From assembly GCA_024404675.1 (NCBI GenBank), contig JAKSPO010000009.1, forward strand, positions 16,196-80,195: DNA of 64,000 nt, in the 5' to 3' direction. Shown one piece after another: positions 2,962 to 44,125 of this stretch; the first letter of the stretch is position 1, and every line of letters starts with the position of its first letter. Both the position numbers and the translations under genes were made by a program. The notes under the pieces are model-generated. The model worked only from the letters and a program-made list of their open reading frames with translations, was not told the origin of the DNA and did no database searches. The DNA is from Lachnospiraceae bacterium. Lineage in GTDB: Bacteria; Bacillota; Clostridia; Lachnospirales; Lachnospiraceae.

Positions 2962-3001
2962 GGCAAATGGTCAGCAATGATCATTTGCCTGTTTTTTTTT
3001 A
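2962..3001 (+). terminator. rho-independent terminator
   Basis: GGCAAATG (2962-2969) pairs with CATTTGCC (2982-2989), followed by a T9 run. Confidence 0.8.
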
Positions 3002-3108
3002 CAGTATCGGTGGCGGAGGCTTCCGATGATGGAAGGACATCGGAGACGTGATCGAAAAGCCCTTTTTCGCGCCTGAAAAATTTTTTCTAAAAAATATGTA
3101 AATACCTA

Positions 3109-3137
3109 TTGACATAGTAGGTAAGTAGGTGTATTAT
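3109..3137 (+). promoter_or_regulatory. sigma-A-type promoter for the metY-cysK leader
   Basis: TTGACA (3109-3114), 17-nt spacer, TATTAT (3132-3137). Confidence 0.6.
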
Positions 3138-3179
3138 AAGCGCATAGACAGAGAGCCGAACAGAAAGGAGATATATAAA

Positions 3180-3296
3180 ATGACAAGTCGTAATATTACA
3201 GTTGATTTTCGAATGTGTAACTGTCGAATGTGTTTCTCCCGGGCATGTCAGTATGGCCAGGTGCATTCGTGTTGCGCGCCGTGCACCGATAGGTAG
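3180..3296 (+). CDS. candidate Cys/Met-rich leader peptide (38 codons)
   Basis: AAAGGAG (3165-3171) lies 8 nt before the ATG at 3180. Translation is MTSRNITVDFRMCNCRMCFSRACQYGQVHSCCAPCTDR, with 7 Cys and 2 internal Met. It lies between a promoter and a terminator hairpin upstream of sulfur amino acid genes. Too short for the supplied ORF track. Confidence 0.45.
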   Translation: MTSRNITVDFRMCNCRMCFSRACQYGQVHSCCAPCTDR

Positions 3297-3328
3297 GTAT
3301 CAAGGAATCAGGATATCTGTTAAGCCAT

Positions 3329-3362
3329 ATGCCCGGGAGGTTAATTACCCCCGGCTTTTTTA
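3329..3362 (+). terminator. leader terminator (attenuator) upstream of metY
   Basis: GC-rich hairpin GCCCGGGAGG...CCCCCGGC (3331-3355) followed by a T-run (3356-3361). Its 5' arm (GCCAT ATGCCCGGG, 3324-3337) can instead pair with CCCGGGCAT (3238-3246) and ATGGC (3253-3257) inside the leader ORF. Confidence 0.6.
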
Positions 3363-3455
3363 TTGAAAAGCTTTTTCGAGAAAGCCGCGGCAGATGCGCA
3401 TCACAGATTATAAATCAATTATAGAAAAGTTAGATACGAAAAGGAGATTACAATT

Positions 3456-4736
3456 ATGAGTAACTATAAATTCGAAACACTTCAGCTTCATGTAGGTCAG
3501 GAACAGGCAGATCCGGTAACCGATTCCCGTGCGGTTCCGATTTACGCAACCACCTCTTATGTATTCCACAATGCCAAACATGCTGCAGACCGCTTCGGTC
3601 TTGCAGACGCAGGCAACATCTACGGTCGTCTTACCAACAGCACGCAGGGCGTATTTGAGCAGCGTATCGCAGCACTTGAGGGCGGCACCGCAGGACTTGC
3701 GGTTGCATCCGGTGCGGCAGCAATTACCTATACAATTCAGGCACTTGCAAAGCAGGGCGAGCACATCGTAGCACAGAAGACAATCTACGGCGGTACAAGC
3801 AACCTTCTGGCACACACCCTTCCGCTTTACGGTATTTCCGCAAGCTTCGTAGACGCGCATAACCTTTCGGAGGTTGAGGGTGCGATTCAGGAGAACACCA
3901 AGGCAATCTACATCGAGACGCTTGGCAATCCGAACTCCGATATTCCGGACATCGATGCAATCGCCGAGATCGCACATAAGCACGGACTTCCGCTTGTTAT
4001 TGACAACACCTTCGGCACCCCTTATCTGATTCGCCCGATCGAGCATGGCGCGGACGTTGTAATCCATTCCGCAACCAAGTTTATCGGCGGCCACGGCACA
4101 ACGCTCGGCGGTGTAATCGTAGACGGCGGCACCTTTGACTGGGCAGCAAGCGGACGTTATCCCTGGATTTCCGAGCCGAACCCGAGCTACCACGGCGTAA
4201 AGTTCACCGAGGCGGCAGGCAAGGCAGCATTTGCTACCTACATCAGAGCAATTCTGCTTCGTGACGAGGGCGCATGCATTTCTCCGTTTGCAGCATTTCT
4301 TCTTCTGCAGGGCACCGAGACGCTTTCCCTTCGTCTTGAGAGACATGCGGAGAACGCTAAGAAGGTTGTAGAGTTTCTTACCAAGCATCCGAAGGTTGCG
4401 AAGGTTAATCATCCGAGCCTTGCGGATCATCCGGACCACGCACTGTATGAGAAGTATTTCCCGAACGGCGGCGCTTCCATATTCACCTTTGAAATCAAGG
4501 GCGGCCAGGCAGAGGCCTTCAAGTTCATCGATAACCTGAAGATCTTCTCCCTCCTGGCAAATGTTGCCGATGTTAAGTCACTTGTAATTCATCCGGCAAC
4601 CACGACGCATTCCCAGCTTACCGACGAGGAGCTTTCTGAGGTTGGCATCAGCCGCAGCACGATCCGTCTTTCCATCGGCACCGAGCATATCGACGATATT
4701 ATCGCCGACCTTGCACAGGCATTTGACGCAGTATAA
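3456..4736 (+). CDS. metY: O-acetylhomoserine (thiol)-lyase / sulfhydrylase, PLP-dependent
   Basis: 426 aa. N-terminus 'FETLQLHVGQE..DP.T.SRAVPIY.TTSY.F' and PLP-lysine motif 'HSATKFIGGHG' are characteristic of the MetY/CysD family. Confidence 0.9.
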   Translation: MSNYKFETLQLHVGQEQADPVTDSRAVPIYATTSYVFHNAKHAADRFGLADAGNIYGRLTNSTQGVFEQRIAALEGGTAGLAVASGAAAITYTIQALAKQGEHIVAQKTIYGGTSNLLAHTLPLYGISASFVDAHNLSEVEGAIQENTKAIYIETLGNPNSDIPDIDAIAEIAHKHGLPLVIDNTFGTPYLIRPIEHGADVVIHSATKFIGGHGTTLGGVIVDGGTFDWAASGRYPWISEPNPSYHGVKFTEAAGKAAFATYIRAILLRDEGACISPFAAFLLLQGTETLSLRLERHAENAKKVVEFLTKHPKVAKVNHPSLADHPDHALYEKYFPNGGASIFTFEIKGGQAEAFKFIDNLKIFSLLANVADVKSLVIHPATTTHSQLTDEELSEVGISRSTIRLSIGTEHIDDIIADLAQAFDAV

Positions 4737-4840
4737 GGACGGCAAATGTGAAAAATAATCTTTCGTTATTGTAATATCGACGAAGAGAATGTATTCTGTA
4801 GAAAGAATCAGTTATCACAAGTAAAGAGAGGACTATTATT

Positions 4841-5773
4841 ATGGCTAAGGTATATACAGCAGTTGATCAGTTGATTGGAGGCACTCCGCTTCTTGAAGTA
4901 AAGCACATTGAGGAGGATCAGGCACTTGCGGCTAAGCTTCTTGTGAAGCTTGAATATTTTAATCCCGCGGGAAGCGTTAAGGACCGTGTTGCAAAATCAA
5001 TCATTGATGACGCAGAGGCGAGCGGAGCCCTGAAGCCCGGGGCAACGCTTATCGAGCCCACCTCCGGTAATACGGGAATCGGTCTGGCTGCAGTTGCGGC
5101 GGCGAGAGGCTACCGATTGATTATTACGATGCCTGAGACGATGAGCATTGAGAGAAGACAGCTGATTAAGGCATACGGTGCAGAAATCGTGCTTACCGAG
5201 GGCGCTAAGGGCATGAAGGGTGCGATTGCAAAGGCAGAGGAGCTGGCGGCAGAGATTGAGAACAGCTTTATCCCCGGTCAGTTTGTGAATCCGGCCAATC
5301 CGAAGGCACATCTTCTTACGACCGGTCCCGAGATCTGGCAGGATACCGACGGCGAGGTTGACATCTTTGTAGCAGGCGTTGGTACCGGCGGAACGATTAC
5401 CGGTGTCGGCGAATATCTGAAGTCCAAGAATCCGAATGTAAAAGTTATTGCTGTTGAGCCTGCAGGCTCTCCGGTTCTTTCTAAAGGCGTTTCCGGCGCA
5501 CATAAGATTCAGGGTATCGGCGCAGGCTTTGTGCCGGATGTTCTGAACACCTCGATTTACGACGAAATCATTCCGGTTGAGAATGAAGATGCTTTTGCAA
5601 CCGGCAAGCTTCTCGGTCGTAAGGAGGGCGTACTGGTCGGCATCTCCTCCGGTGCTTCTTTGTGGGCAGCCATTCAGGTTGCGAAGCGTCCCGAGAATGC
5701 AGGCAAGACGATTGTTGCGCTTCTTCCGGATACCGGAGACCGATATCTTTCCACACCGCTTTTTGCAGACTGA
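4841..5773 (+). CDS. cysK: cysteine synthase A (O-acetylserine sulfhydrylase)
   Basis: 310 aa. Contains '[14 protein letters not shown]', '[12 protein letters not shown]' and '[12 protein letters not shown]' motifs. Confidence 0.92.
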
Positions 5774-8787: not shown

Positions 8788-10002
8788 ATGAAGAAAACGC
8801 TGATTTTGTGCACGGCGCTTCTGGTGCTTATGTGCGGTATCATCGGTTGCGGCAAGAAGGACAATACGTCGACCGTGACACCGACCGTAGAAGCAACCCC
8901 GACGGCAACCGAGGCACCTACGGCGACCCCTACCCCCAGTCCTGTTCCGACCCCTCCGGAGGTGTATCTTCGTGAGCTTTTTGCGGAGCACGGAATGAAG
9001 GTTGGTACCTGTCTTACCACACAGATGATCAACAATAAGCTGATGAGTGAGCTGATTGTTGAGCAGTACAGCAGTGTTACCATGGAGAACTCCATGAAGC
9101 CTGATTACATCTTCAACAAAGAGAAGAGTATTGAGGCCGGTGACCTGGTTGTAGAATTCAATACCGATATGGTGCAGATGCTTGACTGGGCCAAGGAGAA
9201 CGAGATGGCTGTTCGCGGTCATACACTTGTATGGTACAGCCAGACCCCTGCGTGGATCTTCTATGAGGATTTTGATCAGTCGAAGGAGCTTGTAAGCCGA
9301 GAGGTTATGCTTGCACGTCTTGACAGCTACATGAAGCAGGTATTTTCGATGCTTGAGGAACAGGGATATTCCGATATCATCTATGCTTACGATGTTGTAA
9401 ACGAAGCAATCATGGAGGATGGAAAGCTTCGTATGCAGATGAACAACTGGTATGCTACAATCGGTGATGACTTCATCCTGCAGGCATTTATCACGGCCAA
9501 CCGTTACGCTCCCGAGAACATTGCTCTGTTCTATAACGACTACAATGAGCAGTTCAAGACGCAGGCACTTGTGGACCTTGTGAAGTCCCTTGTGGACGAG
9601 GATGGGAACTCCCTGATTGACGGTATCGGTTTCCAGGCACACCTCTATACAGAGGATAATCTTACGACCTACTTTAAGACTGTTGATGCCCTTGCCGAGC
9701 TTGGCATTACGGTTGAAATCACCGAGCTTGATGTATCTCTTGGTGCATGGCAGCATGAGAAGAGAGCCAATGAGGAGACGCTTGCGGAGCAGGGTCGTTA
9801 TTACTACAACCTGATTAACGGCATTCTTGAGAGAAAGGATTCCGGAAAGCTGAATATCGATGCGCTTACCTTCTGGGGTGTGTCCGACGGACAGTCCTGG
9901 AGAAAGTCGGCAAGCCCGCTTCTTTATAATTCTGCTTTCATGAAGAAGCCCGCCTTCTACGGCGCAGCACAGCTTAAGGATTTCGCAGGCTTTACGGAAT
10001 AA
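8788..10002 (+). CDS. GH10 endo-1,4-beta-xylanase, lipoprotein
   Basis: 404 aa. Lipobox 'LMCGIIGCGKK', Thr/Pro linker, 'YAYDVVNEA' (acid/base region) and 'ITELDVS' (nucleophile region). Confidence 0.88.
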   Translation: MKKTLILCTALLVLMCGIIGCGKKDNTSTVTPTVEATPTATEAPTATPTPSPVPTPPEVYLRELFAEHGMKVGTCLTTQMINNKLMSELIVEQYSSVTMENSMKPDYIFNKEKSIEAGDLVVEFNTDMVQMLDWAKENEMAVRGHTLVWYSQTPAWIFYEDFDQSKELVSREVMLARLDSYMKQVFSMLEEQGYSDIIYAYDVVNEAIMEDGKLRMQMNNWYATIGDDFILQAFITANRYAPENIALFYNDYNEQFKTQALVDLVKSLVDEDGNSLIDGIGFQAHLYTEDNLTTYFKTVDALAELGITVEITELDVSLGAWQHEKRANEETLAEQGRYYYNLINGILERKDSGKLNIDALTFWGVSDGQSWRKSASPLLYNSAFMKKPAFYGAAQLKDFAGFTE

Positions 10003-11581: not shown

Positions 11582-12790
11582 ATGAAAGAGAAATATACCT
11601 ATCGATGCGTATCCGCGCAGGTGCGTTTTCAGGAGAACGCCATCGAGACATTTGCCAAGAATACAGAAATATCCTACTCCTTCCGTGTACAAAGGGACGG
11701 CTATCTCGGTGTACACTATCAGGAAGGGGAGATGACGGACGAGGAGGGCTATCGCCTCGCTACCGAGAATCTGAAGCGGAAGCGCCCGTACAAATACGCA
11801 CCGGAGACCGGTGTGCGCGAGCGTGACAAGTCCGAGCAGGAGATGAGCGACAGAGAGCTTCTTGACTTCGGTCGGGAATTGATTACAACACTCCACGAGA
11901 AGTATCCGGACTTTACCTTAAGCGGCAGTCTTCACAGCAGTCGCGAGGAGTCCGGAATGTATAACGACGCCGGGCTTTCCTATCGAAACAGAGATTGCAC
12001 CTACGGCATGGATATCATATTCAAGCATAAGGACAGTAAGGATCTGATGGACGGCTCCTTCTCCTACGGCTTCCGCAGGCTTGAAAAGGAAAAGGCGTAC
12101 AGAACGGCCGAGAATTATCTTTCGGCTTTTGTAAAGAAAGCGGAGCTTCCGGAGGAACTGATTATTCAGATGCCTGTATACGGCTTCATCGGAAAGCTCG
12201 TAAACCAGCTCGAGGGAGAGAATATGGCGCGCGGCACATCGCTTCTTTCCGGCAGAATCGGTGAGAAGGTATTCTCCGAGAAGCTGACGCTTTATAATGA
12301 CCGCTCCGATCTGACGACCTGGGCTACGCCTTTCTTTGACGGCGAGGGTGTTGTGATGGAGGGCGACAGGCAGGTATTTATCGACAAAGGTGTGGTTGTG
12401 CGGGCATATGCCGACAAGGCAACCGCAGAGCGCTACGGCATCGAGCATACTGCAACGGCCGGAAGAGTATTTGCCGATATTCCGACGAACGGGAATTTCT
12501 CCGGATACATCGAGCGTTCCGAGAAGACTACGAAGGAGCTTCTTCAGGGCAGACTTTCCGTTGTGCCGCTTTACTACGATGGCGGCGGCTTTAACGAGAA
12601 GGGTGATTATGTGATGCCTGTGCAGAGAGCATATCTGTGCGACGGTGAGAAGCTGATCGGTATGCTTCCGGAGTTTACGATGACCTCGAACCTGTTTGAC
12701 ATGTTCGGAGATGACTTCATCGGAATCGGAAGCGATGAGCCGGTATATAATGATAAGTGTATCTTAATACGTATGAAATACGGACATTAA
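11582..12790 (+). CDS. pmbA: PmbA/TldE-family partner protein (no HExxxH)
   Basis: 402 aa, starting 9 nt after tldD. TldD/PmbA-like length and C-terminal Gly-rich region. Lacks the metal-binding motif, as expected for the TldE partner. Confidence 0.65.
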   Translation: MKEKYTYRCVSAQVRFQENAIETFAKNTEISYSFRVQRDGYLGVHYQEGEMTDEEGYRLATENLKRKRPYKYAPETGVRERDKSEQEMSDRELLDFGRELITTLHEKYPDFTLSGSLHSSREESGMYNDAGLSYRNRDCTYGMDIIFKHKDSKDLMDGSFSYGFRRLEKEKAYRTAENYLSAFVKKAELPEELIIQMPVYGFIGKLVNQLEGENMARGTSLLSGRIGEKVFSEKLTLYNDRSDLTTWATPFFDGEGVVMEGDRQVFIDKGVVVRAYADKATAERYGIEHTATAGRVFADIPTNGNFSGYIERSEKTTKELLQGRLSVVPLYYDGGGFNEKGDYVMPVQRAYLCDGEKLIGMLPEFTMTSNLFDMFGDDFIGIGSDEPVYNDKCILIRMKYGH

Positions 12791-13915: not shown

Positions 13916-15898
13916 ATGCTGTATTATGTTAATCAGGCAGCTGCCTGTGAGGGGGATGGAAGTAAGAACCGGCCGTTTAAGCGCATCAGTGATGCCGCAA
14001 GAGTTGCAATGCCCGGCGACGAGGTAATCGTTGCAAAGGGTGTATATCGTGAGTACGTGAATCCGTTCCGTGGCGGTACGAAGGATGCAAGAATCGTATA
14101 TCGTTCGGAGGAGCCGCTTGGGGCGGTTGTAACCGGCGCCGAAAAGCTGTCCGGCTGGACACGGTATCAGGATTATGAGAATGTCTGGACCGTCCGTGTG
14201 GACAACGGTATCTTCGGGGATTACAATCCGTACACGACCGAGGTTTACGGCGACTGGTATTTTGCTCCGGCAGTGAGACACACCGGTGCGGTATATCTGA
14301 ACGATGTTATGCTTTACGAGACGGAGTCCTTAGAGGAATGTATCGAGGGAAAGGTCTACACGCCTTCCTGGGACCCGGACAAATCAATCTACAAATGGTA
14401 CACCGAGCAGGATAACGGTGAGACCGTTTTGTACGCGAATTTCCAGGGCTATGACCCGAATAAGGAAAATGTCGAAATCAACGTTCGTCGCCGTTGCTTC
14501 TTCCCGAGCAACACCGGCAGAGGCTACATCACCGTAAGCGGCTTTGTTTTCACAAAGGCTGCAACGACCTGGGCGCCTCCGGCAGCCTTCCAGGACGGCA
14601 TGGTTGGCCCGCACTGGAGCAAGGGCTGGATCATCGAGGATTGTGAGGTTTCCAACAGCAAATGCTGCGGTATCTCCCTCGGTAAGTACTATGACGCAGA
14701 GAATGACCACTACTTCACAAAGAAGCATATGAAGAGCCCCACGCAGATGGAGCGTGATGCCGTATGCCGCGGTCAGTATCATGGCTGGCTGAAGGAGAAG
14801 GTTGGTTCCCACATCGTACGTCGCTGCCACATCCATCATTGTGAGCAGACCGGTATCGTAGGACGTATGGGCGCCGTATTTTCCCTGATTGAAGACAATC
14901 ACATTCACCATATCAACAATATGCAGCAGCTTGGCGGTGCTGAGATTTCCGGTATCAAGCTTCACGCTGCAATCGACGTAGTAATCCGCCGTAACCACAT
15001 CCATCATTCCACGATGGGTATCTGGTGTGACTGGGAGGCACAGGGCACCCGCATCAGCCAGAACCTCCTGCATGACAACTATCGCCCGGATTTCTGCACC
15101 TGGGCCGAGGGCGGTATGGGCAGCCAGGATATCTTCGTTGAGGTTGGTCACGGTCCGACCCTGATCGACAATAACATCATGCTCTCAAAGGCATCGCTGA
15201 TGATTGCTACCGAGAGTGTTGCGATGGTACATAATCTGATTCTTGGTGCATTTCTCAATGTCGGTGCCGGAACCGGAGAACGTTATACGCCTTATCATAT
15301 CCGTCACCGGACAGAGGTTGCGGGCTTTATGACGATTCTTCACGGTGATGACCGCTTCTACAACAACATTTTCGTCCAAAAATGGCCGATCATCGTTGAC
15401 AAGGAGACCGGCGAGAAGAAGGAGAAGGATTCGCTTGTCGGAACCTGGCAGTTTGACGAGTATCCGACCTACGAGGAGTGGATTCCGCACTTTGATCTGG
15501 ATGTTGCAAGACCGGATATGGGCAAGCTTGCACAGTGGCACGAGAGAGAGCATCTTCCGGTTTGGGCCGGCGGCAACGCTTATCTCGGCGGTGCAAAGCA
15601 GTGGAAGAAGGAGACAAACTACTTCTTCGACGATGCGCAGGAGATTCAGGTTGAGCTTGTCGAAAAGGATGGTCAGTACATGCTTGAGACCAACGTTTAC
15701 GACATCATCAAGGACTACACCGCAGGAATTATTACCAGTGATATTCTTGGCAAGGCATTCCAGCCTGAGCAGCGTTTCGAGAATCCGGACGGCTCGGCAA
15801 TTACCTTCGACAGAGATTATTTCGGCGATGCGAGAGGACTTCGTACCGTACCCGGTCCCTTCGTTTCCGCGGACAGCTTAAAAAAGAAGGTCTGGTAA
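13916..15898 (+). CDS. right-handed beta-helix glycoside hydrolase, GH120 beta-xylosidase-like (XylC-like), no signal peptide
   Basis: About 660 aa. RBS AAAGGAAGG before the ATG at 13916; an in-frame ATG also exists at 13892. Motifs 'NPYTTEVYGDWY', 'YANFQGYDPNKENVEINVRR', 'GIKLHAAIDVVIRRNHIHH..GIWCDWEAQGTR' and 'HGDDRFYNNIF' match my recollection of the GH120 family. Family call is from memory, not from a search. Confidence 0.6.
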   Translation: MLYYVNQAAACEGDGSKNRPFKRISDAARVAMPGDEVIVAKGVYREYVNPFRGGTKDARIVYRSEEPLGAVVTGAEKLSGWTRYQDYENVWTVRVDNGIFGDYNPYTTEVYGDWYFAPAVRHTGAVYLNDVMLYETESLEECIEGKVYTPSWDPDKSIYKWYTEQDNGETVLYANFQGYDPNKENVEINVRRRCFFPSNTGRGYITVSGFVFTKAATTWAPPAAFQDGMVGPHWSKGWIIEDCEVSNSKCCGISLGKYYDAENDHYFTKKHMKSPTQMERDAVCRGQYHGWLKEKVGSHIVRRCHIHHCEQTGIVGRMGAVFSLIEDNHIHHINNMQQLGGAEISGIKLHAAIDVVIRRNHIHHSTMGIWCDWEAQGTRISQNLLHDNYRPDFCTWAEGGMGSQDIFVEVGHGPTLIDNNIMLSKASLMIATESVAMVHNLILGAFLNVGAGTGERYTPYHIRHRTEVAGFMTILHGDDRFYNNIFVQKWPIIVDKETGEKKEKDSLVGTWQFDEYPTYEEWIPHFDLDVARPDMGKLAQWHEREHLPVWAGGNAYLGGAKQWKKETNYFFDDAQEIQVELVEKDGQYMLETNVYDIIKDYTAGIITSDILGKAFQPEQRFENPDGSAITFDRDYFGDARGLRTVPGPFVSADSLKKKVW

Positions 15899-33717: not shown

Positions 33718-33746
33718 TTGCCAGAATCGGGAATGTGTGTTATAAT
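33718..33746 (+). promoter_or_regulatory. sigma-A-type promoter of the B12-regulated operon
   Basis: TTGCCA (33718-33723), 17-nt spacer, TATAAT (33741-33746), with extended TGT. Confidence 0.65.
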
Positions 33747-33771
33747 CCGAAATAATTGAATATTGATATGG

Positions 33772-33950
33772 AAGATACGGTTTGAAAGTTGTAATAATGA
33801 GTAGATTAATAGGGAATCCGGTTTGAGTCCGGAACAACCGCCATTACTGTATTTGATGAAGAGGGCACGGAATACCATTGGTGCAAGCCGAGAAGGTGTG
33901 CCTTCGCGCAGGAACTGCTATACCATAAGTCAGGAGACCTGCCGTATCTT
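33772..33950 (+). promoter_or_regulatory. cobalamin (B12) riboswitch aptamer
   Basis: P1 is AGATACGG (33773-33780) paired with CCGTATCT (33942-33949). Conserved core 'AATAGGGAATCCGGTTTGAGTCCGGAACAACCGCCATTACTGTA' and B12 box 'AAGTCAGGAGACCTGCC' (33927-33943). Confidence 0.85.
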
Positions 33951-34065
33951 TTTAGGTTTTTCACGCTTGGGCAATGGGAGAGTGCAGCCGGTATATCGTT
34001 ACAGGGCCTTGACACTTTTCCGAGGGAACGTGTTGTGTGCCTGTTTTTGCTTGCGATTTATCAGT

Positions 34066-34098
34066 TGCTCCTCAGTTTTGAGGAGCATTTTTATTTTT
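34066..34098 (+). terminator. riboswitch expression-platform terminator
   Basis: TGCTCCTCA (34066-34074), GTTT loop, TGAGGAGCA (34079-34087), followed by TTTTTATTTTT. Confidence 0.8.
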
Positions 34099-34196
34099 AG
34101 ATATTTGGTCGCTTGCCGTTCAGCCGGCTGGTGACCGGGGCGAACCTGCCCGGAGCTTAGAATCTGTGTTGTGTGCTTTCAAAGAGGAGGAAATGT

Positions 34197-35072
34197 ATGG
34201 CTTACGAACGAAGGCATCCGTCGGTACTTCTTGTCTATTACCTGTCGGTGACCTTGTTTCTGATGTTTACTTCCCATCCCTTACTCCGACTGATTGCTTT
34301 ATGTGGTGCAGTACTTCTGATGCTTTCGACCGGGGAGCGGGCGCCTAAGCTAAGAACGGTACTTTTTCTTAGCGGAATGGTCGTTCTGACGATTATCATA
34401 AATCCGCTTTTTTCGCACCGCGGAGCGACGGAACTGTTCTTTTTCAATAACCGGCCAATTACCCTCGAGGCGATTATGTACGGCGCAGGCGTCGCCTGTC
34501 TGATGCTTTCGGTTATCCTTTGGTTTCACCTTCTTAGCCGGATGCTTGACAGTGAGAAGCTTCTGACGCTTCTTGGCGGGGTGATGCCGAAGACGGCTTT
34601 TCTCGTCTCCTCGGCGTTACGAATGATTCCCTTTCTTCGAAGGCGTGCGGAAGCGATTCAATCGACGGGACGGTCGATGGGACTCTACGGAACCGAAAGT
34701 ATTCCGGAGAAGCTTTCGGGTAGCGGCAAAGCATTCTCGGCGCTTGTGACCAATTCAATGGAGCACGCGATGGATGCGGGTGCTTCGATGAAGGCAAGAG
34801 GCTACGGATCGCATAAAAGAACACATTATAAAAGATATCGTTTTCGGCGGGGTGACCTTGCTGCAATTGTCCTTATTCTTTGTTTGGATGCGGGAATCTC
34901 GGTAGGGCTTGCAAGCGGGGAGGTTTGGTTCACCTACTACCCAAGACTTGCGATGCATACCGGTCCTATGACTAATCTGGTGCTTATTCTCTATGCGCTG
35001 CTTGTGTTACTTGGTCCCGTAGCAGAGTGGAAAGAAAGACTGAAATGGAAATATTACGTGTCGAAAATCTGA
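34197..35072 (+). CDS. ECF transporter T component (CbiQ/EcfT family)
   Basis: GGAGG lies 6 nt before the ATG at 34197. About 290 aa, polytopic, with an 'ALRMIPFLRRRAEAIQSTGRSMG' CbiQ-type coupling-helix region. Confidence 0.75.
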   Translation: MAYERRHPSVLLVYYLSVTLFLMFTSHPLLRLIALCGAVLLMLSTGERAPKLRTVLFLSGMVVLTIIINPLFSHRGATELFFFNNRPITLEAIMYGAGVACLMLSVILWFHLLSRMLDSEKLLTLLGGVMPKTAFLVSSALRMIPFLRRRAEAIQSTGRSMGLYGTESIPEKLSGSGKAFSALVTNSMEHAMDAGASMKARGYGSHKRTHYKRYRFRRGDLAAIVLILCLDAGISVGLASGEVWFTYYPRLAMHTGPMTNLVLILYALLVLLGPVAEWKERLKWKYYVSKI

Positions 35073-36721
35073 CCTTTTCTTATCCGGAAGCGGCTAAGCC
35101 TGCGCTTTCGCAGGTGAGCTTTTCGCTGAAGGAAGGGGAATTCGCAGTTTTGTGCGGGTTGTCGGGCTGTGGCAAGTCAACGCTTTTAAGACTTCTAAAA
35201 AAAGAGCTTGCCCCCTACGGCAGTTGTACGGGAGAGATTACAATCGGTGTTCTGTCCGGGAAGGATAAGGATGCTTCTATGGCTACGGAGACGGCGCTTC
35301 TTCGGCAGAATCCGGACAGCCAGATCGTTACGGATGTTGTGTGGCATGAGCTGGCATTTGCCCTTGAAAATATGGGAACGCCGCAGGAGATTATTCGAAA
35401 GCGTGTGGCGGAGATTGCCACATTCTTCGGAATGGAAGGCTGGTATCATCGTAAGGTGGATGAGCTTTCCGGCGGACAGAAGCAGCTGTTGAATCTGGCT
35501 TCTGTGATGACGCTTGCACCGCAGGTGCTTCTTTTGGACGAGCCGACTGCGCAGCTCGATCCGATTGCAACGGGGGAGTTTATTCATATACTGGAACGGC
35601 TTCATCGGGAGCTTGGCATCACGATTCTGATTGCGGAGCATCACCTCGAGGAGGTGCTGCCGCTTGCGGATCGGGTGCTGATACTCGAGGAGGGAAGACT
35701 TTCCTATGACGGTAGTCCCGCAGCGCTTTCTGACTTCTTTCAAGATAAGGTGGAGCATCCGTTGCTTCCTTCCTTGCCTGCTGCCTCGAGAGTGTTTCGC
35801 GCCCTTTTGGGAGAAGGTGCGCTTCCGATTTCGGTTGCCGACGGGCGAAGCTTTGTAAGAGCGCATTACGGACAAGGCATTCCTAGACTTGAGAGAACTT
35901 CGCATATACCGAAGAACGAGCCGGCAACGGTTTTAAAGGAGATCTGGTTTCGTTACGAAAGAAATGCGCCGGATGTACTTCGTTCGGCAGAGCTTACCAT
36001 ATATCAGGGAGAGCGGCTGTGCCTTCTTGGCGGAAACGGAAGCGGTAAGACAACCCTACTTTCTCTCTTAGCAGGCATCCGTAAGCCCTATGCCGGAAGT
36101 ATCACGCTGTTCGGGCGAAAGCTTTCCGGGTACCGGCCGGAAGAACGGTATCGAAACAACATCGGGTATTTGCCGCAGAATCCGCGTGAGGCCTTCGTCG
36201 GAGAGACAGTGCTTGAGGATTGGAAGCTTGCGTGCCGCGCCATGGAGTATTCCACGGAGGAAGGCGATGCGCAGATTGCAGCGATGGCTGAGAAGCTGTC
36301 GCTTACGGAGCTTCTTCGGCGTCATCCGTCCGACCTGAGCGGCGGAGAGCTACAGCGGGCAGCGCTTGGAAAGGTACTTCTTCTTAAGCCGAGACTTCTT
36401 CTTTTAGATGAGCCGACTAAGGGCATTGACGCCAGGTTTAAGATGGAGCTTACAAAGCTTCTGAAAGCACTTTCGGAAGATGGCATAACAGTTGTTACGG
36501 TAACACATGATGTGGAATTTGCCGCAGAAACCGCGGAGCGTGTCGGACTGGTCTTCGACGGAGAGGTTACCTCCGTACAGGAGACGACGGACTTCTTTAC
36601 GGGCAATACCGTTTATACAACAGAAGCGGCGCGCATCGCGAGAAATTATTACGAAGAAGTGACACGGACGGAGGAGCTGATTGCTTTGTGCCGGTTGAAT
36701 GGACGGGGTGAGCAGGCATGA
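35045..36721 (+). CDS. ECF/ABC transporter ATPase, duplicated (A1-A2 fusion)
   Basis: Two ABC cassettes: Walker A 'GLSGCGKST' with 'LSGGQKQ', and 'GGNGSGKTT' with 'LSGGELQ'. Start is ambiguous (GTG 35027 or ATG 35045) and overlaps the T-component stop. Confidence 0.85.
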   Translation: MEILRVENLTFSYPEAAKPALSQVSFSLKEGEFAVLCGLSGCGKSTLLRLLKKELAPYGSCTGEITIGVLSGKDKDASMATETALLRQNPDSQIVTDVVWHELAFALENMGTPQEIIRKRVAEIATFFGMEGWYHRKVDELSGGQKQLLNLASVMTLAPQVLLLDEPTAQLDPIATGEFIHILERLHRELGITILIAEHHLEEVLPLADRVLILEEGRLSYDGSPAALSDFFQDKVEHPLLPSLPAASRVFRALLGEGALPISVADGRSFVRAHYGQGIPRLERTSHIPKNEPATVLKEIWFRYERNAPDVLRSAELTIYQGERLCLLGGNGSGKTTLLSLLAGIRKPYAGSITLFGRKLSGYRPEERYRNNIGYLPQNPREAFVGETVLEDWKLACRAMEYSTEEGDAQIAAMAEKLSLTELLRRHPSDLSGGELQRAALGKVLLLKPRLLLLDEPTKGIDARFKMELTKLLKALSEDGITVVTVTHDVEFAAETAERVGLVFDGEVTSVQETTDFFTGNTVYTTEAARIARNYYEEVTRTEELIALCRLNGRGEQA

Positions 36722-37407
36722 GAAAGGGAATCACAATCTTTCTCGAGCTGATTCTGATTCCGCTTATCATAATAGGCGGAGCGCTTCTGTTTCGTGAGAA
36801 ATACTATGTCTGGATCGCATTTTGTGTGGCGGTTATTTCGGTCGTTCCGCTTCTTTATAGCTTTGAGAGGCGGGACAGCACGGCGAAGGAGCTGATGGTG
36901 CTAGCGGTATTGATTGCACTGTCGGTTGTCGGTCGCTTCGTGTTCTTTGCACTGCCGGGCTTTAAACCGGTGGCTGCGCTTGTAATCATTGTCGGCGTAT
37001 GGCTCGGCGGTGAGGCAGGCTTTGTCGTTGGTTCGCTGACGGCACTGGTATCCAATTTCTATTTTGGACAGGGTCCGTGGACACCCTTTCAGATGTTTTC
37101 GTGGGGTGTGATCGGACTTGCGGCGGGAATGCTAAGCGGTATGCTTAAAAAGCATCGCCTGCTGCTTTATGGCTTCGGTATCTTGGCGGGCGTCGCCTTC
37201 TCGCTTATGATGGACATCTGGACGGTCCTGTGGGCGGACGGGCAGCTGCTTCCGTCAAAATATAAGGCGGCTCTGCTTGCAGCGCTGCCGGTTACGGTGG
37301 AATACGCCGTATCAAATGTTCTCTTCCTGATGCTCCTTGCGGAGCCTATCGGAAGAAAACTTGACAGACTCAAAAAAAGAGACGGATTATTTCTGTCTCA
37401 AAAATAG
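36718..37407 (+). CDS. ECF transporter S component (predicted cobalamin-specific from riboswitch context)
   Basis: 229 aa with 6 helices, 'NFYFGQGPWTPFQM' motif, ATGA overlap with the ATPase gene. Substrate inferred only from the upstream B12 riboswitch. Confidence 0.7.
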   Translation: MRKGITIFLELILIPLIIIGGALLFREKYYVWIAFCVAVISVVPLLYSFERRDSTAKELMVLAVLIALSVVGRFVFFALPGFKPVAALVIIVGVWLGGEAGFVVGSLTALVSNFYFGQGPWTPFQMFSWGVIGLAAGMLSGMLKKHRLLLYGFGILAGVAFSLMMDIWTVLWADGQLLPSKYKAALLAALPVTVEYAVSNVLFLMLLAEPIGRKLDRLKKRDGLFLSQK

Positions 37408-37480: not shown

Positions 37481-38275
37481 ATGAAAAAGTTTCTCACAAT
37501 GATGCTGATGCTTTCCATGCTTCTGTGCCTTTTAGGTGTTGCAAGCGCGGAAGATGGCGGGGATGCGGGCATCAAAGTAACCGTTTCTTTCTCTAAGGAG
37601 GGAAATGCGGTAGTTAATCGTAAGTCCATCAATGTTGTGGATGCAGATAGCGACGGCGCATATACCTTTTATGATGTATTCGTAGCACTTCACGAAACCT
37701 GCTATTCCGGTCAGGACGGCTTTGCGGCATCTCAGAGTGGCTGGGTTACCAAGTTCTGGGGCGTAGAAAATCCGAGCATGGGCTATATTCAGAACAATAC
37801 CGTACAGCCCTACAGCGCAATGGATCCGGTTCAGGCAGGAGATTTCGTCAATGTATTCTTCTATCAGGACACCCTCGGCTATTCCGATCAGTGCACCTTC
37901 TTCAATAAGGTCAGCACGAGCGGTAAGGTTGATACCCCGATTGAACTTAAGGTTTCCGGCGCAGGCTATGATGCAAGCTGGGCATTTGCCGTAAATGGAC
38001 TTGCAGACACCCCGATTAAGGTAAATGGCGCTGCTTCCGAGTACACGACCGACAGTGAGGGTAATGTTACCGTTACCTTTAACGAGCCCGGTACCTATGT
38101 CCTTAGCGTATCCGGCACCAATCTTGTGCCGTCTACCTGCACGGTAATTGTTACCGCAGGCAACGATCCCGCACCGCCGACCGGTGATGTAACCTCTATG
38201 CTGATTCTTTGCATGGTTGCTGCATTGGCTATGGCCGGTATGATTGTGGTTGTCAGAAGACGTAACGCTTTATAA
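37481..38275 (+). CDS. cell-surface DUF4430 (transcobalamin beta-domain-like) protein with LPXTG-like C-terminal sorting signal
   Basis: GGAGG RBS before the ATG at 37481. Signal peptide MKKFLTMMLMLSMLLCLLGVASA. 'SGWVTKFWGVEN...AGDFVNVFFY' resembles the DUF4430 signature. C-terminus is 'APPTGD' + hydrophobic helix + 'RRRNAL'. Confidence 0.65.
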   Translation: MKKFLTMMLMLSMLLCLLGVASAEDGGDAGIKVTVSFSKEGNAVVNRKSINVVDADSDGAYTFYDVFVALHETCYSGQDGFAASQSGWVTKFWGVENPSMGYIQNNTVQPYSAMDPVQAGDFVNVFFYQDTLGYSDQCTFFNKVSTSGKVDTPIELKVSGAGYDASWAFAVNGLADTPIKVNGAASEYTTDSEGNVTVTFNEPGTYVLSVSGTNLVPSTCTVIVTAGNDPAPPTGDVTSMLILCMVAALAMAGMIVVVRRRNAL

Positions 38276-39891
38276 TGCGCAGACTGTTTCAAAAACTGAG
38301 CTATCTCCTGTGCGTACTTTTCGTTCTTACGATGGTTGGAACGGGGCACGCACAGGTGTTAAAGAAGAGCCGGCAGGAGGAGGCAATCCTTGGCCGGCTT
38401 TTCGGCATGTCCGGGGCAATGGATGCGCAGACCTGGCTTGACCGCGCATCGGAGCAGTATAAAAGCCTTCCGCTCTCCTGGTACTATCCGGCGATCAGAC
38501 AGAGCGGCGAGGCATATGATTATACGGCCTTTGGCGACTTTTATGAGGCTTATGTAAAAGAGGCCGGGGACAATATGGCGGCAGCCTCCTGGCTGAACGC
38601 ACAGCTATTCCTGTATTCTCTCGGGCGGGAGCTTCCGGACCGGGAGACCGTGCTTTCCCGTATCAGTGAGCGAAGTATTATGAGCCTTATCTACGGGCTG
38701 CATCTGTCGAACAACACCGGAGAGGAATATGTAAGAATAGATTCGGTGCTTTCGTTACAGTGCCCGGACGGCGGCTTTGGCTTTGGCGGCGAGAACGGAG
38801 ACGTGGATGTAACGGCGATGATGCTTGCGGCACTTGCACCGCATCAAAAGGATGCCTTGGTTTCGGCAGCTGTGGAGCGTGCCCTTACCTTTCTTTCTAA
38901 TCGGCAGCTCATGGACGGTGGCTTCTTCACCGCGGGAAGCTATAACAGTGAGAGTATCTCTGTTGTCATCATCGCCCTTTCTTCGCTTGGCATCGACTGT
39001 GAAACGGACAGCCGTTTTCAGAAGGGAGAGGGCCTTCTCGGAGCCTTGTTACGTTTTTACAGCGAGGAGGGCGGCTTTCGTCATACAAGCGACGGAAATG
39101 TGAATGAGCTTGCGACGGCCGAAGGGCTTTGTGCGCTCGTTGCGATGCGTAGAAATGCTTCCGGTCAGAAGAGCCTGTATCTGATGGATCCGCTTCCGAA
39201 GGAGCCTTCACACGAAGAGGGGCCGACATCCGACGTTGAGAAGCCGACACCCGGTGCGGACCGGCCTACAGAGGGACCCATGGAGAAGCCCGCGGAGGAA
39301 TCGAATACGGTTGCGAAGACGCCTGCCTTATCCGGCTACAAGCTTTATGCTTCGGTGGGAATCATCCTTGCGGGAGCGCTATTACTTATCGTTTTGGCAC
39401 TTCGGAAAAGGCTTCGCCGAGGAAATGTGCTTACCATATTCATTCTTATGGCAGCAGCGCTTGCCTTTGTACTTCTTACGAATTTTGAAAGTGTGGATAA
39501 GCACTATTCTACGGACAAATCACCCGTAGACTTCGTAGGTGAGGTAACGCTTTCGATACGATGCGATACCGTAGCCGGGAAGAAGGGTGCACCGAAGGAG
39601 GAGTATATGCTTTCTGTAGGTACGTACCGGATCGGGAGCGAAACGACAGTCTTTGAGGTGCTCTCTGAGGCCTGCAGACAGAATCGTATCGCATTGTCCT
39701 ACACGAGTGTGGGCGGTATTTATATAAAGGGCATCGGAGAGCTTTATGAGTTTGATTTCGGCGATCTGTCCGGCTGGATGTACGCAGTCAACGGAACCTT
39801 TCCGTCCGTTGGCGCGGGCGATTACCGCCTAAGCCCCGGCGACAGCATCGAGTTTCGATATACCTGCTCCTTGGGAAACGATCTGCAGTGA
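38275..39891 (+). CDS. prenyltransferase/terpene-cyclase-like alpha/alpha-toroid domain + 2 TM helices + C-terminal DUF4430 domain
   Basis: 538 aa. Signal peptide (..VGTGHA/QV). Repeats 'LQCPDGGFGF', 'RQLMDGGFF' and 'YSEEGGFRH'. Pro/Glu linker. TM pair 'LYASVGIILAGALLLIVLAL-RKRLRRGN-VLTIFILMAAALAFVLLTNF'. C-terminal 'LSGWMYAVNGTFPSVGAGDYRLSPGDSIEFRY' matches the DUF4430 signature. Confidence 0.7.
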   Translation: MRRLFQKLSYLLCVLFVLTMVGTGHAQVLKKSRQEEAILGRLFGMSGAMDAQTWLDRASEQYKSLPLSWYYPAIRQSGEAYDYTAFGDFYEAYVKEAGDNMAAASWLNAQLFLYSLGRELPDRETVLSRISERSIMSLIYGLHLSNNTGEEYVRIDSVLSLQCPDGGFGFGGENGDVDVTAMMLAALAPHQKDALVSAAVERALTFLSNRQLMDGGFFTAGSYNSESISVVIIALSSLGIDCETDSRFQKGEGLLGALLRFYSEEGGFRHTSDGNVNELATAEGLCALVAMRRNASGQKSLYLMDPLPKEPSHEEGPTSDVEKPTPGADRPTEGPMEKPAEESNTVAKTPALSGYKLYASVGIILAGALLLIVLALRKRLRRGNVLTIFILMAAALAFVLLTNFESVDKHYSTDKSPVDFVGEVTLSIRCDTVAGKKGAPKEEYMLSVGTYRIGSETTVFEVLSEACRQNRIALSYTSVGGIYIKGIGELYEFDFGDLSGWMYAVNGTFPSVGAGDYRLSPGDSIEFRYTCSLGNDLQ

Positions 39892-42122: not shown

Positions 42123-42584
42123 ATGAAAAAATGTGAGTATGAAATCAGAGTTATGACGATGGATGATTACAAGGCAGTGTATGCGCTTTGGCAGAGCATT
42201 CACGGCTTCGGTATTCGTTCAATCGACGATTCGGAGGAGGGCGTCAGAAGATTTATCGACAGAAATCCGAATACCAGTATGGTAGCGGTTTGCGAGGGTC
42301 GAATCATCGGCGCGATTCTGTGCGGTCATGACGGACGCCGGGGAACCTTCTACCACGTATGCGTGCAGGAGGAGTATCGTAAGCAGGGTATCGGTAAAGC
42401 AATGGCGGTTGCCTGCATGCGTGCACTGAAGGAGGAGCATATCAACAAGGCAACGCTTGTTGCCTTCACGAGCAACTCACTCGGAAACCAGTTCTGGAAG
42501 GGCGCAGGCTGGACGTATCGTGAGGATCTGAATTACTATGATTTTACGTTAAATGAGGCCAATATTACGGAATTCAACAAGTAA
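42123..42584 (+). CDS. GNAT family N-acetyltransferase
   Basis: 153 aa with acetyl-CoA binding motif 'RKQGIGKAMAVA'. Confidence 0.75.
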   Translation: MKKCEYEIRVMTMDDYKAVYALWQSIHGFGIRSIDDSEEGVRRFIDRNPNTSMVAVCEGRIIGAILCGHDGRRGTFYHVCVQEEYRKQGIGKAMAVACMRALKEEHINKATLVAFTSNSLGNQFWKGAGWTYREDLNYYDFTLNEANITEFNK

Positions 42585-42619
42585 TGAATGCAATTTGTAA
42601 CCTGAGTGGGGAGTATAAC

Positions 42620-44125
42620 ATGCGAGGTAAGTTTCTTGCCGGTGTGCTTCTTGTGCTGACGATGCTTTTAATCGGTTGCGGCAAGAAGACAGAGTTCAAG
42701 CCGGCGGATGATTCGACAATCGAAGAGCCTACGGACACCCCGATGCCCGAGCCGACACCGCAGCCGATTACGGAGGAGTATGCGGGGCGTATTTCCTATG
42801 TCTACGGGAACAGTATGGTTTGGGATGTGTCGGGAAAGCTGCACTTTGAAGCCATCGAGCGAGGCACCGGGAAGGACGGCGACTGGAGCATTCCGGCGCT
42901 GCTTTTGGGGTATGAAGCGGAAAGTACGGCCGGGGAAGAGCTGTTTCGGATTACGACCGAGCAGTCTACGGAGGGTGTATCCTTCACCCTTCGGATTGGA
43001 ACGATGGAAGGCTTGCTACTGACAATTCCCGCGGGGGAAGCGTGGGATTTTACGCTTTACCATGACGGCAACCGCTACACATTTGTCCAGAACGGTTTCA
43101 CGCTTCTTTCCATCGCAGCGGATGCCGAGTTTATGACGGTGATGGTAGGAAGCGAGCAGAACGCGACGGCTTACCGTTACCCGGTCAGACAGTTTGCGGT
43201 AAGACCGCTTCCGCAGGGCAATATCGTAAGTGCTGAGAGGAGCAGATTGCTCCCGACGCTTCAGACGCTTACGGATATTTATGACGGCAAATACCTTGGT
43301 TCGATTGTAGACTCCGTGCGAAAGAATGCACGCGAGGAGTGGCCTGCCGATTATGTGCAGATTACGAAGGAGCGAATCAACGCAAACGGCGGCTGGACGG
43401 AGTATAATGTCATCTATAAGGCCAATACCGTTGTGGTGGACCGTACCGACAGCAGTGCACCGAGCACAATCACGGAGTATGCCTTCAATGAGCTCTCGGA
43501 GGGCATCCCGAACGTGGAGTATTACATTTATGAGGGACTTTCTGAGAAGCTTCGTTACACCTTTGACGGTGCTGCACTGGACCGCTACCGCTTGGCAATC
43601 TACGAGGAAGAATCGGCAGAGCTTAGGCGTATGGAGAGTATCGGACTCGGGAAGATTCCGCTTCTTTTAGAGTGGACCGACTTCGGCTTTGTGGAGCGCG
43701 GCATCGTGGAGGCTTCGGAAGAAGAGCAGGAATATGTTAGATTCCATTATGCCGACGGAACGGTATACGGTGACGTGTGGGCAGTTTACGCGGACGGAAC
43801 CAGACCGGTTACGGTGTATATCGATAGACTCGGCGCGAAGGATTGCTTTTACGCGGACGGGCGCATCATACCGGGAACGTATCCGAACCGTGAGCTTGTC
43901 AGAAGAAGCTACGACAAATACGGTGTGCTGACCGAGGAAACCAATGCCGCCGGTGTGATACGATATAGCTATACCTTCAGCGATTTCGCCTATGGCGGGG
44001 CGGACGATACGATTCGCCATGAGTGGCAGAAGCTGATGCCTTATCTGGAGAAGGCGGACAAAAAGCCTGCGGAGGAGCCTGACGACGGGGAGAACGAGAT
44101 TCACGAGGAGTTTTTAAGTGAGTAG
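42620..44125 (+). CDS. hypothetical lipoprotein
   Basis: GGGGAG RBS before the ATG at 42620. Lipobox 'LTMLLIGCGKK' and Pro/Thr/Glu linker. About 500 aa with no recognisable catalytic motif. Confidence 0.6.
   Translation: MRGKFLAGVLLVLTMLLIGCGKKTEFKPADDSTIEEPTDTPMPEPTPQPITEEYAGRISYVYGNSMVWDVSGKLHFEAIERGTGKDGDWSIPALLLGYEAESTAGEELFRITTEQSTEGVSFTLRIGTMEGLLLTIPAGEAWDFTLYHDGNRYTFVQNGFTLLSIAADAEFMTVMVGSEQNATAYRYPVRQFAVRPLPQGNIVSAERSRLLPTLQTLTDIYDGKYLGSIVDSVRKNAREEWPADYVQITKERINANGGWTEYNVIYKANTVVVDRTDSSAPSTITEYAFNELSEGIPNVEYYIYEGLSEKLRYTFDGAALDRYRLAIYEEESAELRRMESIGLGKIPLLLEWTDFGFVERGIVEASEEEQEYVRFHYADGTVYGDVWAVYADGTRPVTVYIDRLGAKDCFYADGRIIPGTYPNRELVRRSYDKYGVLTEETNAAGVIRYSYTFSDFAYGGADDTIRHEWQKLMPYLEKADKKPAEEPDDGENEIHEEFLSE

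Follow-up and report, generated by a model that had tools for sequence, protein, structure and literature searches.

We found that the last gene of a predicted B12 importer operon in Lachnospiraceae DNA encodes an exported protein in which two transcobalamin-like domains are joined through a two-helix membrane hairpin. The gene (positions 38275 to 39891, plus strand) lies in a 64,000-nucleotide (nt) stretch from a Lachnospiraceae bacterium (assembly GCA_024404675.1, contig JAKSPO010000009.1, positions 16,196 to 80,195, forward strand), referred to here as the window, and its product, a protein of 538 amino acids (aa) from an ATG start, is referred to as the target. We put the probability at roughly 0.6 that the target is a surface-exposed, membrane-tethered corrinoid catcher that serves as an accessory to a dedicated B12 importer of the energy-coupling factor (ECF) CbrT type; its binding of corrinoids is what we infer. 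A previous sequence-only reading of the window had pointed to this open reading frame (ORF) as a transcobalamin-like two-domain architecture interrupted by a membrane hairpin.

The ORF begins with a signal peptide (aa 1 to 27, positions 38275 to 38355) made up of MRRLFQK, a hydrophobic core, and then GHA followed by QV, with the predicted cleavage site between them. Next comes an alpha/alpha-toroid domain (approximately aa 30 to 300, positions 38362 to 39174) with QxxDGGF repeats, the counterpart of the transcobalamin alpha domain; the toroid motifs named in the sequence-only reading are present as claimed (QCPDGGFGF, aa 161 to 169; QLMDGGFF, aa 211 to 218; EEGGFRH, aa 264 to 270). A disordered linker rich in Pro, Glu, and Thr (aa 301 to 356, positions 39175 to 39342) leads into transmembrane (TM) helix 1 (aa 357 to 376, positions 39343 to 39402), the basic loop RKRLRRGN (aa 377 to 384, positions 39403 to 39426), which is cytoplasmic by prediction, and TM helix 2 (aa 385 to 403, positions 39427 to 39483). 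The C-terminal DUF4430/SLBB beta-grasp domain (aa 417 to 538, positions 39523 to 39891 with the stop codon), the counterpart of the transcobalamin beta domain, contains LSGWMYAVNG (aa 498 to 507) and GDSIEFRY (aa 522 to 529). Its earlier assignment to DUF4430 holds in Pfam (PF14478, aa 457 to 530, E = 1.8e-18, above the gathering score), and the Pfam matches of the toroid to Prenyltrans (aa 150 to 273, E = 2.4e-5) and SQHop_cyclase_C (E = 3e-3) are both below the gathering score. A hydrophobicity scan found an N-terminal signal-like segment and two hydrophobic 19-mers (aa 358 to 376 and 383 to 401, with mean Kyte-Doolittle values of 2.58 and 2.45, respectively). The AlphaFold2 model of the target, built on the family alignment, has a mean predicted local distance difference test score (pLDDT) of 85.5 and a predicted template modeling score (pTM) of 0.63, with about 12 helices across aa 35 to 295, a beta-rich C-terminal domain, and a disordered segment at aa 312 to 353 (pLDDT, <50). 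The model also contains helices at aa 355 to 376 and 382 to 401 with pLDDT values of 93 to 95, which, with the two 19-mers and the disordered segment, bear out the proposed Pro/Glu linker and pair of TM helices around RKRLRRGN.

This hairpin is a conserved property of the family. We counted the hydrophobic segments that separate the alpha motifs from the beta motifs in 76 locus orthologues that have both domain motifs and in 263 database relatives, and found exactly two segments in all 76 of the former and in 231 of the latter; the other 32 relatives comprise 12 proteins of normal length in which one motif pattern was missed and 20 giant proteins. An N-terminal signal-like segment is present in 236 of 241 relatives. 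The loop between the helices is 6 to 8 residues long and typically reads KKRxxKN, with the final N kept in most orthologues. In the 56 orthologues scored for loop charge, every loop has at least three K/R (means of 4.0 K/R and 0.05 D/E), and the net charge across the 15 residues behind TM helix 2 is -1.6. By the positive-inside rule, the loop would be cytoplasmic and both domains would lie outside the cell, a placement that we favor because of the loop charge and because the halves are separate exported proteins in related split systems (see below). The topology check suggested in the sequence-only reading, which had both domains outside, thus came out in its favor, with a basic loop in 56 of 56 orthologues, two segments in 76 of 76, and exported split halves.

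The lengths of the flanking segments also differ in their variability. The linker from the alpha domain to TM helix 1 ranges from 25 to 141 residues among orthologues, and the spacer from TM helix 2 to the beta domain is nearly constant at approximately 18 residues, so the toroid is predicted to be leashed and the beta domain to be kept close to the membrane. The flanks of the hairpin are conserved (YKxW ahead of TM helix 1 and TDFxSxxDYY behind TM helix 2), and this, together with the poorly conserved TM residues, points to the hairpin being a passive tether. A CbiN-like component was considered as another identity for the target and rejected. CbiN has both termini inside the cell and its loop outside, and the charge distribution of the target predicts the opposite orientation. 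We also ruled out a misassembled or frameshifted fusion of two genes, since the same uninterrupted hairpin ORF occurs in hundreds of independent genomes, and the architecture is not a chance feature because it is conserved in hundreds of species. No NCBIfam model covers the hairpin family. The toroid has a weak match to the NCBIfam "SCO2321 family membrane protein" (E = 4e-4), which hints at a further, membrane-anchored form of the alpha half in Actinobacteria.

The fold of the model supports a relationship of both domains to transcobalamin. When the model was compared to the PDB with Foldseek, as the sequence-only reading had suggested, ranks 1 to 14 were all bovine, rat, or human transcobalamin, intrinsic factor, or haptocorrin, in alignments of approximately 520 to 550 columns that cover both domains (E, 8e-9 to 3e-6). 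Squalene-hopene cyclase, drimenyl-diphosphate (drimenyl-PP) synthase, and prenyltransferase beta subunits ranked lower (E ≥ 7e-5). The isolated human transcobalamin beta domain (5no0) matched the target with a template modeling score (TM-score) of 0.77 and a root mean square deviation (RMSD) of 2.8 Å, and the stand-alone DUF4430 protein of Ruminococcus gnavus (3u7z) matched it with TM-scores of 0.69 to 0.74.

At the sequence level, the toroid carries QxxDGG-type repeats of the kind found in class II terpene cyclases and prenyltransferase beta subunits, and with a profile of 32 family members searched against the PDB, the match to class II terpene cyclases improves to E = 3e-12. The target reads DVDVT at aa 176 to 180 (positions 38800 to 38814), compared to DVDDT in drimenyl-PP synthase, so its DxDD motif is incomplete, with Val179 in place of the last Asp; the family-wide form of this region is D-x-D-[VAT]-T. 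Asp178, which does not vary within the family, is aligned to the residue mutated in the D303E entry of drimenyl-PP synthase (DVEDT). Judged from these alignments, DVDVT is a relic of the DxDD motif of class II terpene cyclases, and Asp178 may be structural or may line a ligand cavity.

The target gene is the last of five genes that are tightly packed or overlapping and that form, on the plus strand, an unbroken row from a riboswitch. A sigma-70-like promoter (positions 33718 to 33746; TTGCCA, a 17-nt spacer, and TATAAT with an extended TG) matches 11 of 12 consensus positions and is the best such site in the region, as judged by consensus match only. It is followed by a cobalamin riboswitch aptamer (RF00174, positions 33761 to 33960) that matches the full model (1 to 189) with 90.4 bits (E = 4.6e-21; gathering score, 31.5), which places the target in a B12-riboswitch operon, as had been claimed, with the riboswitch upstream on the same strand. 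A terminator-like hairpin (positions 34066 to 34087, a 9-bp stem with 5 GC pairs), followed by TTTTTATTTT up to position 34097, is probably the expression platform of the riboswitch, given that it lies behind the aptamer and ahead of the first gene. The genes then encode a CbiQ-like ECF T component (positions 34173 to 35072; Pfam CbiQ, E = 2.2e-8), a fused ECF A-A' ATPase (positions 35027 to 36721; two ABC_tran domains, E = 9e-58; NCBIfam ECF_ATPase_1, 340 bits, above the cutoff), a CbrT-related ECF S component (positions 36718 to 37407; Pfam ECF-ribofla_trS, E = 1.3e-8), and a partner surface protein (positions 37481 to 38275; 264 aa from an ATG behind a GGAGG site), whose TAA is overlapped by the ATG of the target gene (TAATG). 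The S component falls below the NCBIfam cutoffs of the named S-component families, and its sole significant PDB sequence match is CbrT of Lactobacillus delbrueckii (6fnp_A, E = 3.5e-8, 167 residues, aa 57 to 223). Because of this match, we read the operon, from its predicted gene products, as a dedicated, B12-repressed importer of the ECF-CbrT type plus two extra exported proteins. The importer would transport cobalamin or cobinamide, for which the riboswitch provides indirect support.

The target belongs to a large family. Hundreds of full-length relatives with 32 to 45% identity are annotated, where named, only as "DUF4430 domain-containing protein," and a HMMER scan for the target family returned 10,093, 6,403, and 1,010 clusters at 50% identity with E values of ≤1e-3, ≤1e-10, and ≤1e-30, respectively. 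In a GTDB scan with one genome per species, at least 579 loci were confirmed, each in a different species, and the 80 loci listed with taxonomy are all from Clostridia. Most of these 80 are gut or rumen metagenome assemblies (Lachnospiraceae, Oscillospiraceae, Acutalibacteraceae, and Ruminiclostridium), with Ruminococcus flavefaciens Y1 and YL228 as cultured carriers; the closest orthologous locus among the matches listed is from an uncultured Lachnoclostridium genome. Our literature searches found no experimental work on the Clostridial hairpin family.

The neighbors of the target gene are conserved along with it. In a set of 82 orthologous loci (L001 to L082), the partner gene lies directly upstream of the target gene in 74, a gene for a CbiQ-like T component neighbors the target gene in 74, and the T, A-A', and S genes are on the same strand and within 5 kb of the target gene in 70 to 74. 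The order in most of these loci is partner-target-T-AA-S, and the order in the window, T-AA-S-partner-target, also occurs. We surveyed 20 orthologous loci with the Rfam cobalamin-clan models and found a riboswitch 5' of the module in 12 at the gathering score. When five loci lacking a riboswitch were rechecked with permissive thresholds, two had correctly placed subthreshold matches and three had none. A second cobalamin riboswitch is present at some orthologous loci (L007, positions 9574 to 9714; L006, positions 14105 to 14304); the one in L007 separates the transcobalamin-like gene from the T gene and would divide the module into two separately controlled units.

The partner encoded in the window consists of a signal peptide, an N-terminal domain of about 110 aa, an Ig-like domain, an APPTG(D) sortase-like motif, a TM segment, and an RRRN tail. 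Its orthologues share the signal peptide, the conserved N-terminal domain, which has no Pfam match, and an Ig-like domain of the CarboxypepD_reg type, and many of them have a [SP]PxTG-like sortase signal (SPKTGD or SPETGD) near the C terminus, ahead of a TM segment and a basic tail; Pfam Gram_pos_anchor is matched by 9 of 48 members. Invariant or nearly invariant residues of the N-terminal domain include H71, W93, G94, Y102, D121, and D136. The partner family, which includes the orthologues in the 82 loci and P0127 to P0245, is widespread and comprises 822 clusters at an E value of ≤1e-5 among the candidates scored. Other members are lipoproteins or have amphipathic C termini, some have dockerin domains, and forms of about 500 aa score approximately twice as high, consistent with tandem duplication.

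The AlphaFold2 model of the partner has a pLDDT of 80, and the order of elements in its N-terminal domain (two strands, a helix, and three strands) is compatible with a beta-grasp fold. We considered the possibility that the partner is a second SLBB paralogue and found no support for it in these comparisons: hhalign of a 74-sequence partner alignment against that of the beta domain returned a probability of 1.8%, three more runs with the N-terminal domain gave at most 1.3%, and 0 of 48 members match PF14478 at an E value of ≤1. Foldseek with the whole partner returned Ig-like matches only, driven by the C-terminal domain. Two relatives (P0247, 741 aa; P0312, 736 aa) are natural fusions in which a partner without its anchor stands in front of a target without its signal peptide; the window partner matches P0312 with an E value of 3e-33, and the P0312 gene (L086, positions 3001 to 5211) is followed by a gene for a CbiQ-like T component. 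These fusions are good evidence, at the level of sequence, that the partner and target act together outside the cell.

Related modules of other Bacillota, which we found by tblastn of plasmid records, have the same domains in other layouts. In Latilactobacillus curvatus (L083, CP117684.1), gene 1 encodes a signal peptide, a toroid, MucBP, and an LPQTG anchor with a hydrophobic helix and the tail FKRQVEHR, and gene 2, which starts 10 nt on, encodes MSKKR, a TM anchor, a low-complexity linker, and DUF4430; genes for T, A-A', and S follow. The toroids of L. curvatus and the target match with an E value of 1e-14. In Bacillus sp. N5-665 (L084), a protein with the order signal peptide, DUF4430, repeat linker, toroid, and LPKTG, and a lipoprotein with DUF4430, are encoded ahead of T, A-A', and S, and the former matches the target in both the alpha (E = 8e-18) and beta (E = 1e-10) domains. 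A S-adenosylmethionine (SAM) riboswitch lies downstream in L084 (positions 11862 to 11960). There are also giant surface proteins of 1.2 to 2.3 thousand residues, with three to eight toroid repeats plus DUF4430 domains and no TM segment between them (P0246, P0248, P0250, P0257, P0263, and P0294, among others); P0248 has a region that, judged by eye, is S-layer-homology-like. In Vescimonas fastidiosa (L085, NZ_AP023416.1), the gene for a 1,097-aa "prenyltransferase/squalene oxidase repeat" protein is approximately 3 kb downstream of the gene for a DUF4430 protein of about 2,200 aa, with two genes between. Relatives with and without the hairpin, for which the sequence-only reading had proposed a survey, therefore exist in four layouts: hairpin, two-gene split, permuted, and giant and hairpin-less.

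Joining the two L. curvatus genes end to end would give the order alpha, TM, basic loop, TM, beta, which is the Clostridial layout. The hairpin is thus best read as a probable fusion scar, left where an alpha gene ending in an anchor helix and charged tail was joined to an adjacent beta gene beginning with a charged N terminus and signal-anchor helix. The layouts may, however, reflect either a fusion or a fission of alpha and beta genes.

In the mechanism that we propose, TM helix 1 would reenter the membrane, the basic loop would stay in the cytoplasm, and TM helix 2 would export the C-terminal DUF4430 domain; given this topology, both transcobalamin-like halves would be outside the cell. The toroid would then be on a long flexible leash of 25 to 141 aa, with the beta domain held approximately 18 residues from the membrane, and the two halves would bind a corrinoid between them in the fashion of transcobalamin. 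The bound corrinoid would be passed to the CbrT-like S component of the same operon, the sortase-type partner would probably cooperate, possibly as the outer station of a wall-to-membrane relay, and abundant B12 would switch off the whole module through the riboswitch. The corrinoid binding, the handover to CbrT, and the role of the partner are the conjectural steps of this scheme.

Several observations weigh against the target being a corrinoid catcher for an importer of this type. Full-length superpositions on transcobalamin have RMSDs of approximately 13 to 16 Å and target-normalized TM-scores of 0.40 to 0.50, and because of these values, the arrangement seen in holo-transcobalamin is not reproduced: in the model, the target domains are each transcobalamin-like but are arranged otherwise. 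PDB sequence and profile searches from the target reach class II terpene cyclases only and never transcobalamin, and Pfam Cobalamin_bind (PF01122) is absent among the target matches at an E value of ≤0.01. The link to transcobalamin thus rests on Pfam DUF4430 plus the fold, and the alpha domain belongs to the transcobalamin family by its modeled fold, not by sequence. Of the two-domain transcobalamin-like architecture proposed in the sequence-only reading, then, the fold of both domains stands, but the orientation of transcobalamin was not reproduced (RMSD, ~13.5 Å; TM-score, ~0.47), and there is no sequence-level link for the alpha domain. The poor conservation of the TM residues offers no hint that the hairpin docks at a particular site of the transporter. 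At the gathering score, 8 of the 20 orthologous loci lack a riboswitch, and a cobalamin riboswitch was not found upstream of the L083 or L084 modules; regulation, and perhaps substrate, may differ between lineages (Lactobacillaceae and Bacillus versus Clostridia). Finally, ECF transporters are generally held to need no extracytoplasmic binding proteins (PMC5997447), and a homologous module of L. sakei has been reported to take up heme rather than B12 (bioRxiv 10.1101/864751).

Some of these points also bear on a narrower alternative, in which the DUF4430 domain alone binds the corrinoid and the toroid docks the partner, binds wall- or lipid-linked glycans, or serves as a spacer, so that the likeness to transcobalamin is architectural only. 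Stand-alone DUF4430 proteins occur in gut Clostridia (3u7z of R. gnavus), modules of this type include DUF4430-only proteins, namely, the lipoprotein of Bacillus and the beta protein of L. curvatus, and the isolated human transcobalamin beta domain has been crystallized with cyanocobalamin (5np4); the model of the target does not reproduce the closed orientation of transcobalamin, and its toroid is nearer in sequence to terpene cyclases. We consider this alternative doubtful, since the toroid and DUF4430 occur together in every module arrangement that we found (hairpin, split, permuted, and giant), as a two-part site predicts, and the best full-length structural matches are chains of the transcobalamin family. 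The possibility that the toroid is instead an active enzyme outside the cell, whether terpene cyclase-like, prenyltransferase-like, or corrinoid modifying, seems hardly credible to us. Its DxDD motif is incomplete at Val179, the Zn ligand pattern of prenyltransferases is not kept (DVT compared to the expected D-x-C), and its export, away from isoprenoid diphosphate substrates and in the context of a vitamin transporter, also argues against catalysis, even though class II terpene cyclases are its nearest sequence relatives in the PDB and the invariant Asp178 aligns with the D303E position of drimenyl-PP synthase.

Other alternatives concern the substrate and its fate. That the module imports another tetrapyrrole, such as heme, as claimed for Lactobacillus sakei Lsa1836-1840, would fit the heme uptake role reported for an ECF module with separate transcobalamin-like alpha and beta proteins (bioRxiv 10.1101/864751) and the failure to find a cobalamin riboswitch 5' of the L. 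curvatus or Bacillus modules. This is improbable for the window, in which a 90-bit cobalamin riboswitch precedes the operon, as one does at 12 of 20 orthologous Clostridial loci, and in which the only significant PDB match of the S component is the B12-specific CbrT. It is very improbable that the target hoards or senses B12, starving competitors or signaling, without a handover to CbrT: the target gene is co-oriented and tightly colocated with T, A-A', and S in 70 to 74 of 82 loci, with a start/stop overlap in the window, and repression by B12 fits uptake. In favor of such a role, gut Bacteroides are documented to compete for B12 by capturing it at their surface (PMC6143338), a physical link between the target and the S component is hypothetical, and the TM residues are poorly conserved.

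A broader version of this reading, which we put forward tentatively and consider less likely than not, is a wall-to-membrane corrinoid relay of gut and rumen Clostridia. In this relay, the sortase-anchored partner would pass the corrinoid to a membrane-stapled "split transcobalamin" that closes above the membrane, which would pass it to CbrT. The hairpin might then be a snapshot of separate alpha and beta genes becoming a single-chain transcobalamin, with a proposed acquisition by animals from Gram-positive bacteria. If true, the relay would be an ECF transporter that uses extracytoplasmic binding proteins.

Elsewhere in the window, a gene at positions 42584 to 44125 (plus strand) encodes a predicted lipoprotein of 513 aa with an LLIGCG lipobox and no Pfam match at an E value of ≤1e-5. 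Positions 1 to 30000 encode enzymes for plant polysaccharides, including a GH10 xylanase with CBM4_9, GH3, GH31, GH120-like, arabinofuranosidase, and heparinase II/III-like proteins, a set consistent with a fiber-degrading Lachnospiraceae host.

Part of this picture is already known, and the work adds no new principle. The SLBB superfamily was defined in 2007 by Burroughs, Balaji, Iyer, and Aravind, who described bacterial fusions of SLBB and alpha/alpha-toroid domains in either order, with signal peptides and Gram-positive anchors, in operons that encode a second SLBB protein alongside CbiO- and CbiQ-like products; the carriers usually lack B12 synthesis, and a role in B12 scavenging was predicted (PMC1796856). 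The split version of L. sakei is likewise known. The new elements are the layout itself, in which a membrane hairpin is conserved, the likely derivation of that hairpin from two anchors, the extent of the family and where it lives, and a conserved partner with an undescribed domain. The available portion of the 2007 supplement lists the Bacillus layout, which L084 bears out, and we found no "toroid+TM" or "TM+SLBB" architecture in that portion (PMC1796856). The sequence-only reading had expected a notable case of shared architecture; the layout with the hairpin is indeed new, but toroid-SLBB proteins in such operons had been predicted in 2007. The general idea is 19 years old, so the present work contributes a layout that is new and that lends itself to experiment. 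If the target binds corrinoids, it would provide a concrete and testable case of extracellular binding proteins that serve an ECF transporter, a bacterial counterpart for the workings and origin of the two-domain transcobalamin clamp, and a new marker of B12 scavenging in fiber-degrading gut Clostridia.

The closest structural counterparts of the target in the PDB, transcobalamin, intrinsic factor, and haptocorrin (2bb6, 2pmv, and 4kki), are extracellular, as predicted for the target, and likewise have a B12 context. These proteins are soluble and have a short soluble linker, whereas the target has a leash of 25 to 141 aa and a two-helix membrane hairpin; neither target domain is similar to them in PDB sequence searches, and the target toroid keeps its QxxDGGF repeats. 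The proteins of Burroughs et al., such as the B. cereus LPXTG protein gi 42782379, resemble the target in their domain pair and signal peptide, and their operons resemble that in the window in coding for a second surface protein along with a CbiQ-like T component, a CbiO-like ATPase, and an S component, there called a "TM protein." However, the Bacillus member has the order beta-linker-alpha-LPXTG, is wall anchored, and has no TM segment between its domains, in contrast to the hairpin of the target, and the second protein of those operons is an SLBB protein, whereas the Clostridial partner has no detectable SLBB domain.

The modules of L. sakei (Lsa1836-1840) and L. curvatus (L083) are like that in the window in combining ECF S, A-A', and T components with exported transcobalamin-like alpha and beta proteins, with DUF4430 in the latter. 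They differ from it in that alpha and beta are separate genes, with an LPXTG-anchored alpha protein that contains MucBP and a beta protein that is anchored by an N-terminal TM segment and has a long linker; a cobalamin riboswitch was not found in L083, and the authors assign heme uptake to the L. sakei module (bioRxiv 10.1101/864751). ECF-CbrT of L. delbrueckii (6fnp; PMC5997447) has a homologous S component and, as in the window, an ECF T component and two ATPase domains. In L. delbrueckii, CbrT draws on a general ECF module, and no extracellular accessory proteins have been described for it, whereas the window module is dedicated, riboswitch controlled, and equipped with two extra surface proteins.

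Corrinoids, including B12, are contested in the gut, and much is known of how Bacteroides capture them at the cell surface but very little of such capture in Gram-positive bacteria. The lipoproteins BtuG and BtuH of Bacteroides have folds unrelated to that of the target (BtuG is a beta-propeller) and work at the Gram-negative outer membrane with a TonB-dependent transporter. Their likeness to the target is one of functional analogy: they are riboswitch-controlled surface corrinoid binders that feed a transporter in gut bacteria (PMC6143338; PMC13616437), which is the role that we propose for the membrane-tethered target in Clostridia.

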